A DNA stretch of 11,216 nucleotides from a virus. Positions 1 through 7,498 of this stretch are shown here, one piece after another. Each line of letters opens with the position of its first letter. Positions within the stretch are counted from its first letter, which is position 1. The position numbers were made by a program, and so were the translations under genes. The notes under the pieces were generated by a model that did not search any database, was not told where the DNA came from, and saw only the letters and a list, made by a program, of their open reading frames with translations. The stretch lies in the UHGV virus genome UHGV-0117802; one strand, 5' to 3'.

Positions 1-159
1 ATGGGGATTATGCCTAATAATGTTGGAGGGTTTGGGGATGTGGAGAAGGCCAGCCGGGTATTTGTTCGGAATGAACTGATGCCACTTCAGAAGAAGTTAC
101 AAGATCTCAACTATTGGATCAATGAAGAAGCAATAACTTTCGAACACTATAAACTATAA
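1..159 (+). CDS. 3' end of a truncated CDS (52 codons, ...ITFEHYKL*); possibly the portal gene C-terminus by synteny
   Basis: Frame 1 is open from the window edge to TAA at 157-159. It is convergent with the 211..1608 gene. In P2/186 the gene ending next to cos is the portal gene, but 52 residues are not enough to confirm identity; an open frame of this length has a non-trivial chance probability. Confidence 0.3.
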   Translation: MGIMPNNVGGFGDVEKASRVFVRNELMPLQKKLQDLNYWINEEAITFEHYKL

Positions 160-182
160 TTTAAAAATCATTACCTATGAAA

Positions 183-207
183 AAAGGTGGAGACAACCTC
201 CACCTTT
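183..207 (-). terminator. Hairpin between convergent genes; intrinsic terminator for the 211..1608 gene
   Basis: Perfect 10-bp inverted repeat AAAGGTGGAG (183-192) / CTCCACCTTT (198-207) with a 5-nt loop. On the minus strand the stem runs into a T6 tract, starting 4 nt after the stop of the 465-aa gene. It may also serve the plus-strand gene ending at 159. Confidence 0.45.
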
Positions 208-210
208 AAC

Positions 211-1608
211 TTAAGCTTTAATATATTTAAATTTGAAAGGATTCGCGTTAGGATCTAATGGTTTTATTACGCCCTCCTCCCTTAACTTTTGCAATGCCTT
301 TTTAACCTTTTGAAGGTCATCTTCGCCACTTAATTGTCTAACCAACTTATTTGTGAGCTGTCCCGTTGGATTTTCTTTAAAATAATTAATAATCACATCC
401 TCAATTGAGGCTATTGTTTGATGCTTAACTATTACAACAAAATTATTGCCCCTTTCTTCAAATACCGGGGCTACCAACCCGGCCTTACGCAATTCATTTT
501 TTGCAGTATCAAGCCCCTCACCAATATCATGGTTCACTGGATTGGGAAGTTTATGCAACAAACGCACTAAATTTGGATTACGAGAAAACCGCTCTTCATA
601 TAAATTATTAATAGTCATGTATCCAGGCAATCTGCCTGGACTTTGAACTTCAATCCGGTTGTCATAAACTTTTACGTGCACATCATCCTTTTGGCTGTAA
701 TCTCTATGAATAACAGCATTAACTAATATTTCCTTCAATGCTTCTGCAGGATAGCTAAGTTTTACTAGATTTTCGCCGTCTTTGAATGATGCTCCATCAA
801 CATATTCTTTTACTTTTGCTATTGTATTTAAAATAACCACTTCAAGTGGCCCCTCAATCGTTACAGGATCTTCCTGTAATTGTTCACGTTTGTACTCTGC
901 TTCAGTTGTTCTAAGCCGATATACTTTTACAGCACATCGAGTATCTAAACATCCTTGAGGCTCTTCATCAAATAGTAAAACACAGCCTACATTCGGGACA
1001 AATTCACCATCTTTCTTAGTTAACAGTCGTTGTTTTTTTAAAAAAACTCTCGGTGACTGAGTCGTTCCTATTCTACGTAAATAATCAGAATAATATTCAC
1101 TTTCAAGAATATCTTCTACTTCAACTATATCCACTGCTTTTTTTTCATAAGGTTCTGCGCCTTTAGAATAGGAAAGCTGAGTAATTCGCTCACCTTTTAT
1201 TTTTAATTTTTGCGCGTTAGCTCTTATAAAGCAATCGCCAGAGGCCGTGTAATGAACCTTGGGGCTTTTTGGTATATCCACATGTAAAATCAATCCATTG
1301 GAAGGTGTTCTTAAATATTCCACCTCAACATTCTCAACAGCTGGATTAGTATTTTCCAATAAGGTCGAAATAATAGCATTCGCTTCCTCTGGCTCATTGA
1401 AACCAGATATACGCTCTCTCCCCGAAGCTGCATCCTCTATGCCAATATAAATATTACCGCCATCAGCATTTGCAAATGCTACAAAAGTTTCTTGTAATTT
1501 ATTAGGCGCTATTTGCTTACTTTTAAAATCATTGAAATGATCTTCAGTAGTGTTTAACAACGCCTTAATTTCCTGCGCTGATATATCAATTACTTCATAC
1601 ATCTTCAT
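211..1608 (-). CDS. Schlafen/AlbA_2-like N-terminal domain + HATPase_c_4-like C-terminal domain protein (465 aa), function unknown; AT-rich cargo
   Basis: ATG at 1608 with AAGGA RBS. N-terminal motif ETFVAFANADGGNIYIGIED matches the AlbA_2/Schlafen (divergent AAA) core signature AFAN-x-GG-x-IGV-D. C-terminal EILVNAVIHRDY matches the HATPase_c_4 signature. Base composition is visibly more AT-rich than the phage backbone. Confidence 0.6.
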   Translation of the reverse strand: MKMYEVIDISAQEIKALLNTTEDHFNDFKSKQIAPNKLQETFVAFANADGGNIYIGIEDAASGRERISGFNEPEEANAIISTLLENTNPAVENVEVEYLRTPSNGLILHVDIPKSPKVHYTASGDCFIRANAQKLKIKGERITQLSYSKGAEPYEKKAVDIVEVEDILESEYYSDYLRRIGTTQSPRVFLKKQRLLTKKDGEFVPNVGCVLLFDEEPQGCLDTRCAVKVYRLRTTEAEYKREQLQEDPVTIEGPLEVVILNTIAKVKEYVDGASFKDGENLVKLSYPAEALKEILVNAVIHRDYSQKDDVHVKVYDNRIEVQSPGRLPGYMTINNLYEERFSRNPNLVRLLHKLPNPVNHDIGEGLDTAKNELRKAGLVAPVFEERGNNFVVIVKHQTIASIEDVIINYFKENPTGQLTNKLVRQLSGEDDLQKVKKALQKLREEGVIKPLDPNANPFKFKYIKA

Positions 1609-1689
1609 TTTCCTTTAATATGTAGCTTGCTAAATTTACCATTTTTAATACTTTTATCAAGATGATGGTATAGATTACTCATCCGCGCG

Positions 1690-1708
1690 CTCGTATCCCC
1701 GCCACGCC
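1690..1708 (-). other. Putative cos (cohesive-end) site
   Basis: Minus strand reads GGCGTGGCGGGGATACGAG. The first 13 nt match the 19-nt GC-rich cohesive end of P2/186 as I recall it (P2 GGCGAGGCGGGGAAAGCAC). Its position between the portal side and the tum/A side is as expected. From memory, not searched. Confidence 0.4.
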
Positions 1709-1730
1709 TGCCCGCTTTATGTAGTGGTTT

Positions 1731-1832
1731 TCATGCAGGTGCATAATCTACGCAAAAGCCCGCCAGTTCTGGCGGGCCTTAGCAAAAACGATCCTCAAAC
1801 GATCATGCAATCTCATGCAGCATAGACATGCA
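1731..1832. repeat. Iterated CATGCA motifs next to the putative cos
   Basis: CATGCA occurs at 1732, 1804, 1814 and 1827. The 8-mer TCATGCAG is repeated at 1731-1738 and 1813-1820. ATGCA-GG-TGCAT inverted repeat at 1733-1744. Confidence 0.5.
1754..1777 (-). terminator. GC-rich hairpin with T-run on the minus strand
   Basis: Stem GCCCGCCA (1758-1765) / TGGCGGGC (1770-1777), loop GTTC. On the minus strand it is followed by TTTT (plus 1754-1757 AAAA). It would insulate the 465-aa cargo gene from leftward read-through. Confidence 0.35.
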
Positions 1833-2050
1833 CAGACGAGTAAAGCGAATCGGACTTTACGCAAGGTGAACTCCTCAGCGGGCATAATCAGTATGTCGGA
1901 AGATCTCTAAAAATGAATAATTCGGTTAACAGGTATGCTTACAAAAGCATATATTTGATTAAAAATCATGTAAGGGGGAGGATCTCAAACTGAATCGCCA
2001 CGGGTTTTACAAACTTCGATAGTCTCTCTAACGTTTCGGCTGAGGTCAAA

Positions 2051-2476
2051 ATGAAAAGCTTTTACGTATTAATTTTAATTCTGGTTGCAAGCTTTGTTAG
2101 CGTCCCAGTTCAGGCGGTAACAGCTAAAAACTATGAGAAAGGAACTAAAGCTCAACAGAAATCAATATCTTACCTTTCATGTGCATTCTATGGCAGTAGC
2201 ACACAATTAGATCCTAGCTACACGGAGCAAGTACCTACAGCCGATATCAAGATATTACAGAAAGCAGCTTACCACGCTTACAACGATGCGCTCTCATACT
2301 TTGGCTATGAGGAACCAGATCACGAACAACGCATAATTGATTATGCTGAATTTGTGGCGTCGCAAGAAGCTGTGTTATGGGATAAGCCGGGAATGAATGG
2401 AAAGCAGGTAACACTAATTGCTCGTTCTCTCTACAATGAGAGTAACTGTAACTTGTTACTGGACTCAATTAAGTAG
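2051..2476 (+). CDS. Small secreted protein of unknown function (141 aa) with N-terminal signal peptide
   Basis: ATG at 2051 with GAGG RBS 5 nt upstream. N-terminus MKSFYVLILILVASFVSVPVQA has a positively charged n-region, hydrophobic core and AxA-type cleavage context. It is on the opposite strand to all neighbouring phage genes. No recognisable enzyme motif. Confidence 0.55.
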   Translation: MKSFYVLILILVASFVSVPVQAVTAKNYEKGTKAQQKSISYLSCAFYGSSTQLDPSYTEQVPTADIKILQKAAYHAYNDALSYFGYEEPDHEQRIIDYAEFVASQEAVLWDKPGMNGKQVTLIARSLYNESNCNLLLDSIK

Positions 2477-2635
2477 GAAAAAGATGGTATTTTGCCCGTA
2501 GTTTCAACCTTAATCTCCAAACCTGTCGCAGAACGGGCGTTCACTCATCAAATAAACGCCACACCTAACGCCTCACTGTACTCGTTGTTCAACCTTGCTG
2601 ACGCCAGAAGCAATTTCAGACGCCAGCAACGTTTC

Positions 2636-2869
2636 TTAATGCAGCCAGCTGTCGTCTTCCCACACCTTCTGCATAATTTTCATCACTTGTTTTCTTTCTT
2701 CGTCCAGTTGCAGTCCGGTCAGTTCCACACCGTTAGAGCTACCTTTGCGGATACGAATTACCGTTTTGGGATACAGGGGGCGCAGATTGCGGTAAAGCTC
2801 GGATTCAAGGGCGTCCAGTGTAGACTGGCTAATCTTCTGCTCTTTATCGATCATTATTTCAATGCGCAT
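2636..2869 (-). CDS. DinI-like protein (77 aa from ATG 2869); probable C-terminal part of a Tum-like antirepressor
   Basis: MRIEIMIDKEQ...ALESELYRNLRPLYP...VMKIMQKVWEDDSW aligns by eye with E. coli DinI (MRIEVTIAK...WESADDW). GAGGTGA RBS 5 nt before ATG 2869. The reading frame is also open upstream to 2941. Confidence 0.6.
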   Translation of the reverse strand: MRIEIMIDKEQKISQSTLDALESELYRNLRPLYPKTVIRIRKGSSNGVELTGLQLDEERKQVMKIMQKVWEDDSWLH

Positions 2870-2879
2870 AAAAGTCACC

Positions 2880-3068
2880 TCAGCTGATGACATCCATTGA
2901 GCGGTTGTATTCGTGGGTTCTGATTTTTGCCATGAGTTCATCTGTCAGTTCAGAAACCCACTGCAGGGCCAGCCCCTTCTCTTCATCACTACACTCACTA
3001 GCCGCTACAAGCTTAAGAAAAAAATCAATGCGCTGGAGCTTCAAAGACTCCAAAAAATAGTCCTGCAT
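2880..3068 (-). CDS. Small SOS-controlled protein (62 aa); probable N-terminal part of a Tum-like antirepressor
   Basis: ATG at 3068 with GGAGG RBS. A LexA box lies 43-58 bp upstream. It overlaps the DinI-like frame over 2883-2941 in a different frame. The position (after gene A, next to cos) is that of 186 tum. Confidence 0.45.
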   Translation of the reverse strand: MQDYFLESLKLQRIDFFLKLVAASECSDEEKGLALQWVSELTDELMAKIRTHEYNRSMDVIS

Positions 3069-3110
3069 CTTTCCTCCTATGACACCAAATCAATACTGTA
3101 TACATAACCA

Positions 3111-3126
3111 CTGTTTATATTTACAG
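3111..3126 (-). promoter_or_regulatory. LexA (SOS) box CTGTTTATATTTACAG upstream of the tum-like operon
   Basis: Exact CTGT-N8-ACAG with an all-A/T spacer. A weaker half-site CTGTATAC lies at 3096-3103. On the minus strand a TATACT -10-like hexamer abuts the box. Confidence 0.55.
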
Positions 3127-3220
3127 TATATAATAATCTTACTGATGTAAAACGTTTTTTTACGTTCATCGGCCTGATATGCCTGGTATTATTAAGAGCA
3201 CGAATTGTTAACCCGCGTAA

Positions 3221-5593
3221 TTAATACAGGTTCCGCCACTTATCATCTTCCTTCAGACGCTGGTTCCGATAGAAGATACGCAGGCCTGCTCCTGACGGAA
3301 TACTGCCGCCGCGAAGGAGCAAATCGACTTCTTTCTCGCTGCCATCAAATCCCCTGGACTTCAGTTCATAGACGAGCTGCTGTCGCTGATGGTCTGTAAT
3401 TCGCTGTTTGTAGTCTTTACGCCGTTTCGGTTTCACCTGGCGTAACCTTGCAGCCAGTTCCCGGCGCTCTTTTTTGCTCATACTGTGCAGGTAATCGTGC
3501 AACTCCTTGTCATTCATACGGGTAATATCCGTTCTGGAGTCCCCATCAGCTGATTTGTCTTTCCCTTGTTGGTTCAAATTTTCAGCAAGGGGACAGTTAT
3601 TGCCACGAGTCCAAGGGGCGCAAGCGCCCTGGTCGGCTGCCGCCTCCTGAACATCAACGGCCTTACGAACCATTTTCCACTTCACGGCATGAGTGCAGAT
3701 CTTGCCCTCTGCAATAGGTGACCAGATGCCATAAATACGAATGCCGTGATCGCCATAGGCGGTCGGCTCTTCGTTGATTTCATAAGCGGTTCTGATGAGG
3801 TGATATTTGCGGGGAACCAGTACGCCGCCCTGCTTCATGATGTAGGTGGCAAAACAACCAGCATCAGCAGCAGCCAGGATGGCATCAAGGCGCGGGTTAT
3901 CCAGTACCGGCGCACCTGCTTTTTTGTCCCCCTGTTGCCTTGCCGCCTGACCAGCCAGCAATCGCAGTTCACGGTAAGCCTGACGCCCCGGAATGCCAAA
4001 GAAGCGGAATTGCTGAACACGATGCAGAGACGCCCAGGCATTAACGTATTCAGCATTATCACGCAGGGATTTCCCCGTTTCCTTGCTGATCTCGCCAGCC
4101 AGACCACGCCCGTCAATGTTCTTACTGATGTATTTCGCGATGTAGCTTGTTGGCGTACCTTTGCGCGGGTTAATCAACTCAGACTTAAAGCGCGGCCCAG
4201 TGTTATTGCCCAGTTCCTCACGGTCTTCACGGATGGCAAACTTACGCAGTAATGCAGTGATGGCGCGGCGGTCTTTTTTGCGCATAAAACACAACAGGTG
4301 CCAGTGAACTGTACCGTCATGATGCGGCTCAGCCACCCGCACGCCATACCACCGCAATCCGGCTTTGTGCATCGCCTTACGAAATGCAGCAAACATGCCG
4401 ACTAGATAATCACTGCTTTGTCTTACCGTCGCATTTGTCCAAGTTGGGTTGGGCCTGCCATTATTTAGCGTGGAATGGAAACGTGACGGACAGGTGATGG
4501 TGTAGAAAACGGCGCAGTCACCGCGCATTTCCGCGATAAGCTCCAGGCCTTTAACACAGGCCATCATCTCATTGCGGCGATGCGCAGGGTTGCTGCTGCT
4601 GGCGTTTACCACATCCTCCATGTCCAGCGTGTCGCCGTCTTCGTTCACCAGTTCATGAGAACGAAAAAACTCCAGCGACTTACGGCGCTGCTCACGTTTA
4701 TGCATCACGGCTTCATAGCTGACATAGGGAGATGCTTTTTTGCTGACCAGGCAGACAGCACGCAACTGCTCTTCCCGCCATTCGCAACGCATCTTCCATA
4801 ATTTCCGGTACCACCAGTCAGCGCACAACATACGCGCCAGCGAACCCGGAATGAGTTCATAGGGCACGGGTTTACGGCGGTTTCTTTTCCGGCGGAGTTG
4901 CTCAAACGCAGGCGGGATGACATCCAGACGCAGGGTTTCCGCTGCCACCTTTTCCCATGTCTTGCGGATTTCTTCTGGCTTAACGTCATCGGTGACATAC
5001 AAATCGCCACAAGCTGCATCAAGGCACATGCTCATATGCGCAGCTACCAGGGTGGACAGGCGTTTCACCTGATCCTGACTCATTTCAGGCAGGATCAGCA
5101 GGCCGTCCAGCCCTTCATGGCTTGCCATAAAGCGAAAAGAAGTGGATAGCTGACAGTCGCGTACATGCTCCAGCCGTTCCAGACATGGCTTAATCGTCTC
5201 ACGCAAATAGCGGGAATAAGCCTTTGGCCTGCCCAGGCTGCTGAAGTATTCAATACGTTGCATCAGTGGCTTGCTGATATGGGAAGGCTGGGCATTGACG
5301 TCCGCCAGAATGACCATATCTGGATTAAAACGCTGCTGCTCATGCGCCAGCTTTGCCCGACTAATGAGCTTATCCTGCTCCATTTCGCGCTGGACAGGAT
5401 CACGGGATTCATTAAAGAAATAACGCTCCCAGACCTGATCACTCAGTGCCTCGCGGCGCAGCTGTTCCTGCTCGTTATCGGCAGCGTACAGAGCGATCAG
5501 GTTTGAAAGCGCAGAAACTGAAGATTGCTCTTCTGTCTCTACGTAAGGATTGATTGCTTTTTTCTCAGCATTCCAGGAATAGCTGTAGTTCAT
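3221..5593 (-). CDS. A: Replication initiation protein A (P2 gpA / 186 A family rolling-circle HUH endonuclease), about 790 aa
   Basis: HUH motif in [10 protein letters not shown] and the two-tyrosine motif YIAKYISK, typical of P2 A / phiX174 A type Rep proteins. Size and position in the early operon fit. The track start at 5644 is TTG; ATG at 5593 overlaps the upstream stop as TAATG and has a GGAG upstream. Confidence 0.85.
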
Positions 5594-6423
5594 TACGCAA
5601 TCTCCAGTTCGAGCTGTGAAGGCTGCAAACCATTCGACAGCCAATCAGAAACTGAAGGTGGGCGAACAGCTTCAATTGCACCTTTTAAAATTGCGCAACG
5701 GTTTTTCAGAATGACAGCTTTCAGCTCCTTTTCCGTCAGATTGCGCGAATACTCAGCCTCCTGAATAGCCCGCGTCAGCTCAGGATATTTGCTATTAAAT
5801 TTGGGGACATTGCAGGCAAGATTTGTACTGTCGGCAGTCGCCAGTGGGTAATTTCCCAACACACGACCGTCAAGCATGCGCAAACCATGAACAGCTGTTT
5901 TGAAATTGTGTCGGCAATAAATTGCTTCAAAAGCGTCCTGCATACGACGATGCCAGTGCGCAGTTCTGATAGCCGCATATTCACCAGACGATCCAAAGCA
6001 GACACGAGGCCATTCACGACATAGCTCGATAAGCCGATCGATTGACTCGTGCAGATGCCAGACGGGAGTTGCCTTCCCGTAGAACATTTTCGGAACTTCG
6101 TTTATCAGGGCATCATTGTCACGTTCACCTCCGTCCACAACATCAGGAATGACAAAAAAAGCGACCTTAGGATGGTGGTAATAGTTCAGGAGCCATTTAT
6201 AAAAATCACTCCAGTTAATTTTTAGCCCACGCACCCATGCAGAAAATGCGCCGTTATCAATGCCGACGACCTGAGCGTGCTGAATGGACGCCGCAATCTG
6301 ATCTGGTCGTACATAGGAGACGAAAGCGCCAGCTCCGCTCACCGCAATACGATGAACGTCGCCAGCACTTCCCCAGACAGGCGTCCCATGGAAATGATGA
6401 ATTCCGTGGTGCATTTCTTTCAC
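5593..6423 (-). CDS. Unknown 276-aa protein translationally coupled between Dam and gene A; weak TGT/DpdA-like hints only
   Basis: GTG at 6423 overlaps the Dam stop (GTGA) with a GGGGTG RBS 5 nt upstream; ATG at 6414 is an alternative start. The stop overlaps the A start. His-rich N-terminus (HHGIHHFH). IDNGAF and [10 protein letters not shown] loosely resemble the DSGGF and hydrophobic-D motifs of tRNA-guanine transglycosylase-fold enzymes. No zinc-site CxCxxC. Confidence 0.55.
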
Positions 6424-7274
6424 ACTTGCACCCCGAAAATAACAGTAGAGTCACGTCCCCTACTAAAATCGGCACTAAACCAATTAGCAGATTTAGTGGC
6501 AATCATCTCAGTTGCAAATTTTCCCTCCCCCGCTGTAACGCCGATGCTGCGTTTCGCCCTGATGTAGTGGTGAGTGAAATTACGATAAAGGGACCGGGTC
6601 AAAGACGTGTTACTGTTAGAAACAATGACCGGATGTCCTTCTGATGACCGATGTTCAAGAATGGATGCCAGGTGATACTGATCATCTTCAGTGAAACCAT
6701 CAGTGTGATAGCCGGAAAACGTACCGTCATAAGGCGGATCGCAATACACCACATCCCCCACCTTCAACATCGCCAGCGTTTCATCAAAGCTGGCGCAGAT
6801 AAACGTTGCCCGCTGGGCTTTCTCTGCAAATGCGCGAATTTCTTTTTCAGGGAAATACGGATTTTTATAATTACCGTAGGGAATGTTGAAATGCCCGCTC
6901 TTGTTATAGCGACATAAACCACGGTAACCGTGACGATTGAGATACAGGAAATATACCGCTTTCATGAAATCAGTAATTTCAGTGGAGTAATTAAACTCCT
7001 GCCTTATGTTGTAATAAGCCACCTCCCTGTTTGCTTCCTCAAATAAAGCTCTGGCACGAGATATAAACGCCTCACAATCAGCAGCAACCTTTTTATAGAG
7101 GTTGATTAAATCAGGATTAATATCCGCAACAAGATAGCTGGGGTAATCCGTCTCCATCATCACTGCACAGGAACCCGCGAAAGGTTCAACCAGTCGCGGG
7201 CCAGCAGGAAGATGCTTTTTCAGTTCGGACATTATGGCGGTTTTATTTCCTGCCCATTTCAGGATGGTGCTCAT
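6420..7274 (-). CDS. dam: Dam-family DNA adenine (GATC) N6-methyltransferase
   Basis: [17 protein letters not shown] (FxGxG), [33 protein letters not shown] and VVYCDPPY (DPPY catalytic motif) are near-collinear with E. coli Dam. ATG at 7274 with GGAGGTG RBS; the track start at 7334 is TTG. Confidence 0.88.
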
Positions 7275-7498
7275 ACAGCACCTCCGTTGTAATGTTTGCC
7301 TTTCAGCTCTGCGATTTCCTGACAGGTAATGCAAAGCTGCACACCCGGAATGGCACGGCGGCGTGCTGGCGGAATTGGCGCTTCACACTCAACGCAAAGC
7401 ACGCGGGACACGCCCGGCGTTTTGGCACGGGCAGCACGGATATGGCGTTGGCGTTCTTCTTCAACGCGCTGCTGTACGAGATCCATTGCATCAGCCAT
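7271..7498 (-). CDS. TraR/DksA-family C4 zinc-finger protein (75 aa)
   Basis: CVECEAPIPPARRRAIPGVQLCITC gives a CxxC-N17-CxxC zinc ribbon as in phage/plasmid TraR-like proteins. AGGAG RBS. ATGA overlap with the Dam start. Confidence 0.7.
   Translation of the reverse strand: MADAMDLVQQRVEEERQRHIRAARAKTPGVSRVLCVECEAPIPPARRRAIPGVQLCITCQEIAELKGKHYNGGAV

Follow-up and report, generated by a model that had tools for sequence, protein, structure and literature searches.

A predicted P2-family cos site with position-locked TGCAT words in a 186/Fels-2-like prophage of Escherichia coli

Prophage setting of the site

The window, by which we mean the whole 11,216-nucleotide stretch of the virus genome UHGV-0117802 analyzed here, is 100% identical to part of the E. 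coli CPww7 chromosome (NZ_CP075716, where the prophage lies around 1.40-1.42 Mb) and of five other complete genomes. Parts of its first 3300 positions (1-3300) are present in 1285 out of 5426 complete E. coli genomes. Gene assignments, taken from Pfam and RefSeq annotation, place an integrase, the CI repressor and CII in it, together with a phage-encoded Dam methylase (6420-7334) and replication protein A (gpA, PF05840; 3221-5644, minus strand). The window is the early arm of a 186/Fels-2-like prophage of the P2 family, reversed with respect to the P2 map. Two further RefSeq genes lie on the minus strand to the left of gene A, a 62-aa gene at 2880-3068 and a DinI-like gene at 2636-2869 (PF06183, E = 7e-23). 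A 131-aa plus-strand ORF at 2492-2887 in the program-made list of reading frames is probably spurious, as RefSeq places these two genes on the opposite strand there.

At the left edge of the window the portal gene (Q) ends at position 159 and continues beyond it, where the identical chromosome carries portal, TerL, scaffold, capsid and TerS (PF05944) genes; these, as well as the head-completion and lysis genes, are intact and annotated there. The prophage combines a gpP-type large terminase (TerL; 4368-6134 of locus L131, with Terminase_5, 6N and 6C domains) with a gpM-type small terminase (TerS; 1663-2313 of the same locus, PF05944), the pair found in the P2 family. The site described below has gene A and its accessory region on one side and portal gene Q on the other, which is the position of cos in that family.

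Cargo genes flank the site on both sides, a statement of the initial annotation with which the gene annotation agrees, and the arrangement corresponds to a known cos-adjacent hotspot for defense and cargo genes (PMC9122126, PMC5694545). Between the site and the portal gene lies a gene for a 465-aa Schlafen AlbA_2/HATPase_c_4 protein (211-1608, minus strand); other E. coli strains carry DUF4145, DUF4062 or PIN-domain genes in its place. The 465-aa protein has partial matches to pAgo-associated PADLOC models, making it a candidate defense gene in this hotspot. On the other side, a plus-strand gene at 2051-2476 encodes a hypothetical 141-aa secreted protein with a signal-peptide-like segment at its N-terminus (MKSFYVLILILVASFVSVPVQA) and its own promoter-like site at 1926-1955; searches of this ORF against Pfam, NCBIfam and PADLOC families returned no match. 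The predicted promoters of the two cargo genes, at 1660-1633 on the minus strand and 1926-1955 on the plus strand, diverge from each other just outside the conserved block delimited below.

The 19-mer and the conserved block around it

The minus strand at 1690-1708, read as the reverse complement of those positions, is GGCGTGGCGGGGATACGAG, a 19-nt sequence that is the sole match in the window to the pattern GGCGWGGCGGGGA. The initial annotation had likened this 19-mer to the start of the cohesive end of P2 and 186, and the resemblance holds: the genome records of P2 and P4 begin with GGCGAGGCGGGGAAAGCAC and that of 186 with GGCGTGGCGGGGAAAGCAT, all three annotated as cohesive ends, and the window sequence matches P2 and P4 at 14 of 19 positions and 186 at 15 of 19, with the first 13 bases identical to those of 186. 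On the minus strand from 1708 to 1690 it has the 19-nt form of P2-family cohesive ends that starts GGCG(A/T)GGCGGGGA, and it departs from the P2, 186 and P4 sequences at positions 14, 16, 17 and 19 (ATACGAG in the window, AAAGCAT or AAAGCAC in these phages). A full match of 19 of 19 is found in Salmonella phage SEN8, where positions 1-19 of the record are identical and annotated as a "putative cos site"; this 19-mer is also given as cos in the genome announcement of SEN8, where it was called at annotation and no end mapping is reported (PMC5427200). Both the SEN8 record and that of the 186-like phage EtG stop exactly at the base equivalent to window position 1709, just before the 19-mer. On the minus strand the predicted nick would lie 5' of 1708, and its staggered plus-strand counterpart between 1689 and 1690.

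Among 114 class-1 cos loci from IMG/VR, retrieved with a pattern that covered the nick region alone, the 19-mer of the window is the commonest variant (40 copies), followed by the P2 type (30), a variant ending ATAGCAT (17) and the 186 type (11). In a scan of IMG/VR with the exact 19-mer, no contig ended at the site among the matches listed, most of which are prophage-derived. One IMG/VR contig (locus L287) carries two window-type 19-mers in opposite orientation 3.2 kb apart, at 3447-3465 (minus strand) and 6704-6722 (plus strand), which may reflect an assembly artefact or two adjacent elements.

To compare cos regions we number positions from the first cohesive-end base in the P2 map orientation, such that position p corresponds to window 1708 - p. 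In these terms the complete conserved block comprises 150 bp, 1684-1833 on the minus strand, or -125 to +24. BLAST against 50,697 phage records recovered the block in 85-105 records at 82-97% identity, with edges at 1684 and 1833, and in these records it is unannotated intergenic DNA; in the closest relatives the entire 150 bp are 92-97% identical. We also computed per-position information over 73 non-redundant cos regions that share less than 80% identity over -150 to -45, and information content falls to background beyond about +25 and about -125. Conservation extends only about 6 bp past the 19-mer on the portal side, and the rest of the conserved sequence is on the gene-A side.

The columns from -24 to +25 are near-invariant over the 73 representatives and form the conserved core of the region. 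To the right of the 19-mer stands a GC box, CGCGCGG (1683-1689, minus strand; +19 to +25), which corresponds to near-invariant columns with the family consensus YGCGCGC and is roughly symmetric with GCGGGCA on the left of the nick. The latter ends the proximal core GAAAACCACTACATAAAGCGGGCA (1709-1732, minus strand; -24 to -1), a stretch of high information content that lies within the 55-bp cos core of Ziermann and Calendar 1990, as cited in later work (PMC5694545, PMC3931495); that core is made up of the A-run, the GCGGGC box, the 19-mer and the GCGCGC box. Over -45 to +25, the window matches SEN8 at 60 of 71 positions, 186 at 51, P4 at 48 and P2 at 46.

Beyond the core lies an array of short repeats. 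The initial annotation had listed four plus-strand copies of CATGCA to the right of the 19-mer, and their start coordinates (1732, 1804, 1814 and 1827) are exact; read on the cos strand, they place TGCATG at -29, -101, -111 and -124 from the nick. The proximal copy (CATGCA at 1732-1737) supplies the TGCAT at -29 of a motif pair, ATGCAccTGCAT, at 1733-1744 on the minus strand (-36 to -25), and the same interval contains the palindrome ATGCAGGTGCAT of the form ATGCA-NN-TGCAT. The distal copies, all on the minus strand, are R3 (TGCAT at -101, 1805-1809, within CATGCA 1804-1809), R2 (-111, 1815-1819, within CATGCA 1814-1819), 10 bp from R3, and R1 (-124, 1828-1832, within CATGCA 1827-1832), 13 bp from R2. 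Both the palindrome and the exact double repeat noted earlier are present, the latter being TCATGCAG, which occurs exactly twice, at 1731 and 1813. Elsewhere in the 11.2 kb there is a single further CATGCA, at 6236, against an expectation of about 11 over both strands, and four same-strand copies within 101 bp arose in none of 2000 dinucleotide-preserving shuffles. For the shorter core TGCAT, the equivalent clustering test gave 81 of 2000 shuffles; the 5-mer is merely suggestive from the window alone, and the weight therefore rests on the comparative data.

A nick-anchored stack of the window with SEN8, 186, P4, P2 and a Ralstonia phage, read together with the information profile of the 73 representatives, shows the same parts at the same distances. 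The order in the family is a TGCAT triad, a variable spacer, ATGCA-NN-TGCAT, an A-run, GCGGGC(A/G), the 19-mer and (T/C)GCGCGC. Aligning the window with the cos regions of P2, 186 and P4, the comparison that the initial annotation had called for, gives a base-for-base common architecture: the start of the cohesive end, the GC boxes, the proximal ATGCA-NN-TGCAT with its A-run, the distal triad and the position between A and Q are all shared. What the window adds is an extension of the palindromic DNA into a terminator-like hairpin and a pair of GATC sites. The Felsduovirus cos (Fels-2, RE-2010, SEN8) has an identical 19-mer and a block that is 89-94% identical, including the hairpin and the GATC pair, and differs from the window in its flanking cargo genes alone. 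On every point that sequence can address, the element agrees with a P2-family cos.

Two other cos systems are instructive. In the phiCTX/Smp131 type of pseudomonads and xanthomonads, the architecture and positions are the same, but GCAG takes the place of GCAT as the repeated word and the cohesive end finishes GRGACGA; that of Stenotrophomonas phage Smp131 is GGCGTGGCGGGGAGACGAG (PMC3931495). The phiCTX GenBank record (35310..220) annotates "R4, R5, R6 repeats" that span cos and marks an IHF site some 300 bp upstream, so repeats beside a P2-family cos are not a new idea. The lambda cos (cosQ-cosN-cosB, with gpNu1 R sites and an IHF site) follows a like logic, a partially two-fold nicking site with an adjacent array of short repeats. 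The likeness is one of mechanism and not of family membership, as there is no sequence similarity and the overhang is 19 nt here and 12 nt in lambda. Furthermore, the lambda cosB repeats lie on the terminase-gene side, whereas here all repeats are on the gene-A side and conservation ends at +25 on the Q/P side; and the IHF consensus WATCAANNNNTTR, allowing up to 1 mismatch, has no match within 1684-1833.

Conservation of the repeated words and their candidate reader

The TGCAT words are held at fixed distances from the nick across a diverse set of phages. Of the 114 class-1 loci, 111 have a GCAT in the interval -45 to -20, and the 73 non-redundant representatives, drawn from those 111, all have it at -28; its upstream partner ATGCA is present in the -40 bin of 75 of the 114. 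The distal words are nearly as regular, with GCAT at -100 in 60 and at -110 in 55 of the 73 regions. The outermost position is looser, as GCAT stands at -123 in 38 of 73 and is shifted to -120/-119 in 29, and R1 is sometimes found at -121 instead of -124. The search pattern excluded the distal region, so the conservation of the distal motifs is no ascertainment effect. Spacer columns between the motifs carry information of about 0 over the 73 representatives, and motif register and spacing are constant within 1 bp across genera and satellites.

Satellites are of particular value here. Apart from cos, P4 has no region in common with P2, and it relies on its helper for terminase (PMC9122126). 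It has the full cos architecture, with its array adjoining the 3' end of psu, and all four positions are kept in 8 of 8 psu-positive P4-like satellites sampled. The Ralstonia phage differs in its cohesive end (GGTGAGGCGGGGTCCCAAC) and still has TGCAT at -110, -100 and -29. Distal copies are missing from locus L012 and from Aeromonas phage LPM4. In the latter (locus L132, around 300-345), three GGATC words at -127, -108 and -96 replace the distal TGCAT, which breaks the concerted rule described next, and the proximal TGCAT and a CCAGtgCTGG palindrome are retained.

A second class of cos loci, similar to phiCTX and Smp131, was retrieved with GGCGTGGCGGGGRGACGA and comprises 76 non-redundant loci. 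These have the same layout with the word GCAG at about -110 and about -100 (10 bp apart), -36 and -28. Distal and proximal words switch together: the combination is GCAT-GCAT in 64 of 73 class-1 representatives and GCAG-GCAG in 66 of 76 class-2 loci, as would be expected if one DNA-binding module reads all copies. Separately, an 11,251-bp GCAG-class viral contig from a metagenome (locus L212) ends exactly at +19, as expected for a filled-in virion end.

The initial annotation had suggested that such motifs could be cosB-like binding elements. The position lock, the satellites and the concerted switch to GCAG support this suggestion, and we infer that the words are recognized by a protein, most likely the terminase, in a cosB-like role. 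As to which subunit might read them, TerS (PF05944) is a helical protein in which similarity to TPRs is weak and no HTH can be recognized, and a sequence search with TerS against solved structures gave no match. The N-terminal Terminase_5 domain of TerL has similarity to sigma-70 region-4 and homeodomain-like HTH folds. Its putative recognition helix reads WK[Q/K/L]RD in 47 of 47 class-1 sequences (in fuller form T-V-[Q/H]-S-W-K-[Q/K]-R-D) and WK[A/T/S/G/D]RD in 54 of 54 class-2 sequences (T-[V/I]-H-[S/A]-W-K-[A/T/S]-R-D-[E/D]). A class-specific helix is compatible with the TerL HTH as the reader, a lead that leaves gpM as a further candidate. The class-specific residues are confounded by shared ancestry, and a comparison of the TerL HTH with TerS in four phages and about 100 loci is non-discriminating, because both proteins differ between the classes.

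Proposed role of the block and its lineage-specific additions

Taken together, the identity with SEN8, the architecture shared with P2, 186 and P4, the A-Q position with terminase genes nearby and the ends of the SEN8 and EtG records support the reading of this element as cos. The element is real, correctly interpreted by the initial annotation, and of an ordinary, already known kind. We consider it very probable that 1684-1833 is the complete cos of a Fels-2/186-like P2-family (Peduoviridae) E. coli prophage, with the TGCAT repeats acting as terminase sites. After induction, terminase, composed of a gpM-type small and a gpP-type large subunit, would cut the replicated circular genome around the 19 bp at 1690-1708. 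Cuts 19 bp apart between the GC boxes, GCGGGCA| and |CGCGCGG, would leave 19-nt 5' cohesive ends; we propose this step because the site is homologous to those of P2, 186 and P4, where the ends of the genome records are annotated as cohesive. Terminase would assemble on the gene-A (right-end) side through the TGCAT words, with either gpM or the N-terminal HTH domain of gpP as the motif reader, and the repeats would hold it at a fixed distance from the nicks as a functional analogue of lambda cosB. The monomeric circle would then be packaged and its DNA fed into the prohead.

Published work on packaging agrees with parts of this scheme. Monomeric circles are the preferred substrate of the P2-family terminase, and for P2 and P4 a "55-bp cos" has been described (PMC2231350). 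When a P4/P2 cosmid was extended past the short cos, transduction rose 10^4- to 5x10^4-fold (PMC9594776), a gain that fits a signal reaching to about -125. Papers citing Chattoraj and Inman 1974 contained no usable statement on which P2 end is packaged first, and the analogy with cosB is accordingly one of recognition and not of direction.

The main alternative accepts the site as cos but assigns binding of the TGCAT repeats to a host protein or phage regulator that bends DNA or acts in transcription or replication. Host factors had been raised in the initial annotation, lambda cosB needs IHF, and the change from GCAT to GCAG coincides with a change of host group; moreover, the annotated starts of the P2 old-tin transcript (33424/33426) lie about 30 bp from the triad, so that promoter and array overlap in P2. 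Nonetheless, the motifs hold their distance from the nick and not from the genes, and the flanking genes vary in content and orientation. The P4 array sits beside the 3' end of psu, the Ralstonia phage, which is betaproteobacterial, uses the enteric motif, and the block contains no IHF consensus, with the predicted cargo promoters outside it. We therefore regard binding by a host protein or regulator as unlikely, and a promoter or operator reading of the motifs was rejected, as their position follows the nick and not the neighboring genes.

A different objection concerns the prophage rather than the repeats. Many P2-like prophages of E. coli are remnants and the window covers only the early half of the element, from which it might be argued that the site is a disused relic cos in a defective prophage; given that the neighboring structural, terminase and lysis genes are intact in the identical chromosome and that the block retains the full family consensus, we judge this very improbable. 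Least probable of all is that the array is functionless and conserved merely through common descent, recombining as a unit beside cos: all compared sequences are indeed homologous and the closest relatives are 92-97% identical over the 150 bp, but among representatives below 80% identity the motif columns stand out from spacer columns with almost no information, the register holds within 1 bp across genera and satellites, and the four copies change jointly to GCAG.

If the block is the cos with terminase sites that we propose, it pins the packaging site, and hence the predicted virion genome ends, of a prophage type common in E. coli, and it delimits the 150 bp between the two halves of the cos-adjacent defense and cargo hotspot (PMC9122126). 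For cosmid and phage-delivery work with P2 and P4, the functional signal probably reaches as far as about -125, well past the often-quoted 55-bp core, an extent that would explain the 10^4-fold better transduction by longer cos fragments (PMC9594776). The GCAT/GCAG switch suggests a simple handle on packaging specificity. In the open literature that we searched, which did not extend to Ziermann and Calendar 1990, the statement of a 55-bp core was found and the TGCAT array was not named; what goes modestly beyond the literature found is the position-locked GCAT/GCAG word in phages and satellites and the Dam-site pair of the Fels-2 type. More speculatively, packaging in the P2 family may be signaled by a position-locked word of 4-5 bp, GCAT in enteric and Ralstonia phages and in P4 satellites and GCAG in the phiCTX/Smp131 class, which recurs at about -124, -111 and -101 and at -36/-29. 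A single reading head, possibly the TerL HTH and not TerS, would read all copies, the word would set helper-satellite packaging specificity, and in the Fels-2 type the GATC pair might add sensitivity to Dam or SeqA. We put this wider model forward tentatively, as possible rather than probable.

The Dam-site pair, GATC-N7-GATC (TGCATGATCGTTTGAGGATCG), occupies 1790-1804 on the minus strand, with GATC at 1801-1804 (-96) and 1790-1793 (-85); the first site abuts the distal repeat R3 and the two lie 11 bp apart. GATC at -96/-85 is found in 12-13 of 15 non-redundant members of the window's cos class, in which the intervening 7 nt vary, and the pair is absent from P2- and 186-type cos. A phage dam gene accompanies the pair in 17 of 20 loci and is present in 3 of 25 loci that lack it. 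We rejected this association as evidence of function, as it is confounded by lineage and has exceptions in both directions. Methylation gating and SeqA binding are possible roles of the pair. At the pac site of phage P1, Dam methylation of TGATCR elements that occur as repeats governs cleavage. The likeness is that GATC sites occur here in the packaging signal of a phage encoding its own Dam methylase, the first of them in the context TGATCG; unlike at P1 pac there are two sites only, and these belong to a cos rather than a headful system, such that the parallel serves as a lead only.

The hairpin lies between the Dam-site pair and the proximal motifs. It is formed by a GC-rich inverted repeat at 1758-1781 on the minus strand, with the core CCAGaaCTGG (-64 to -55), and is followed by TTTT at 1754-1757 in the manner of a terminator. 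The extended palindrome GGCCCGCCAGAACTGGCGGGC with TTTT (minus strand, 1781-1754) has a computed RNA fold of -25.1 kcal/mol (z = -4.65). A simple terminator scan left the 1758-1781 hairpin uncalled despite this strong computed fold, and Rfam returned no RNA family in the window. CCAG at -64 is present in 35 and CTGG at -58 in 30 of the 73 non-redundant cos regions, or about 45% of members, and the palindrome is absent from P2 itself. Judging from the modeled fold, the hairpin and its T-run probably also terminate leftward (minus-strand) transcription from the A/DinI side before it crosses cos. A comparable element is found in 186, whose terminator t95b lies just upstream of its triad.
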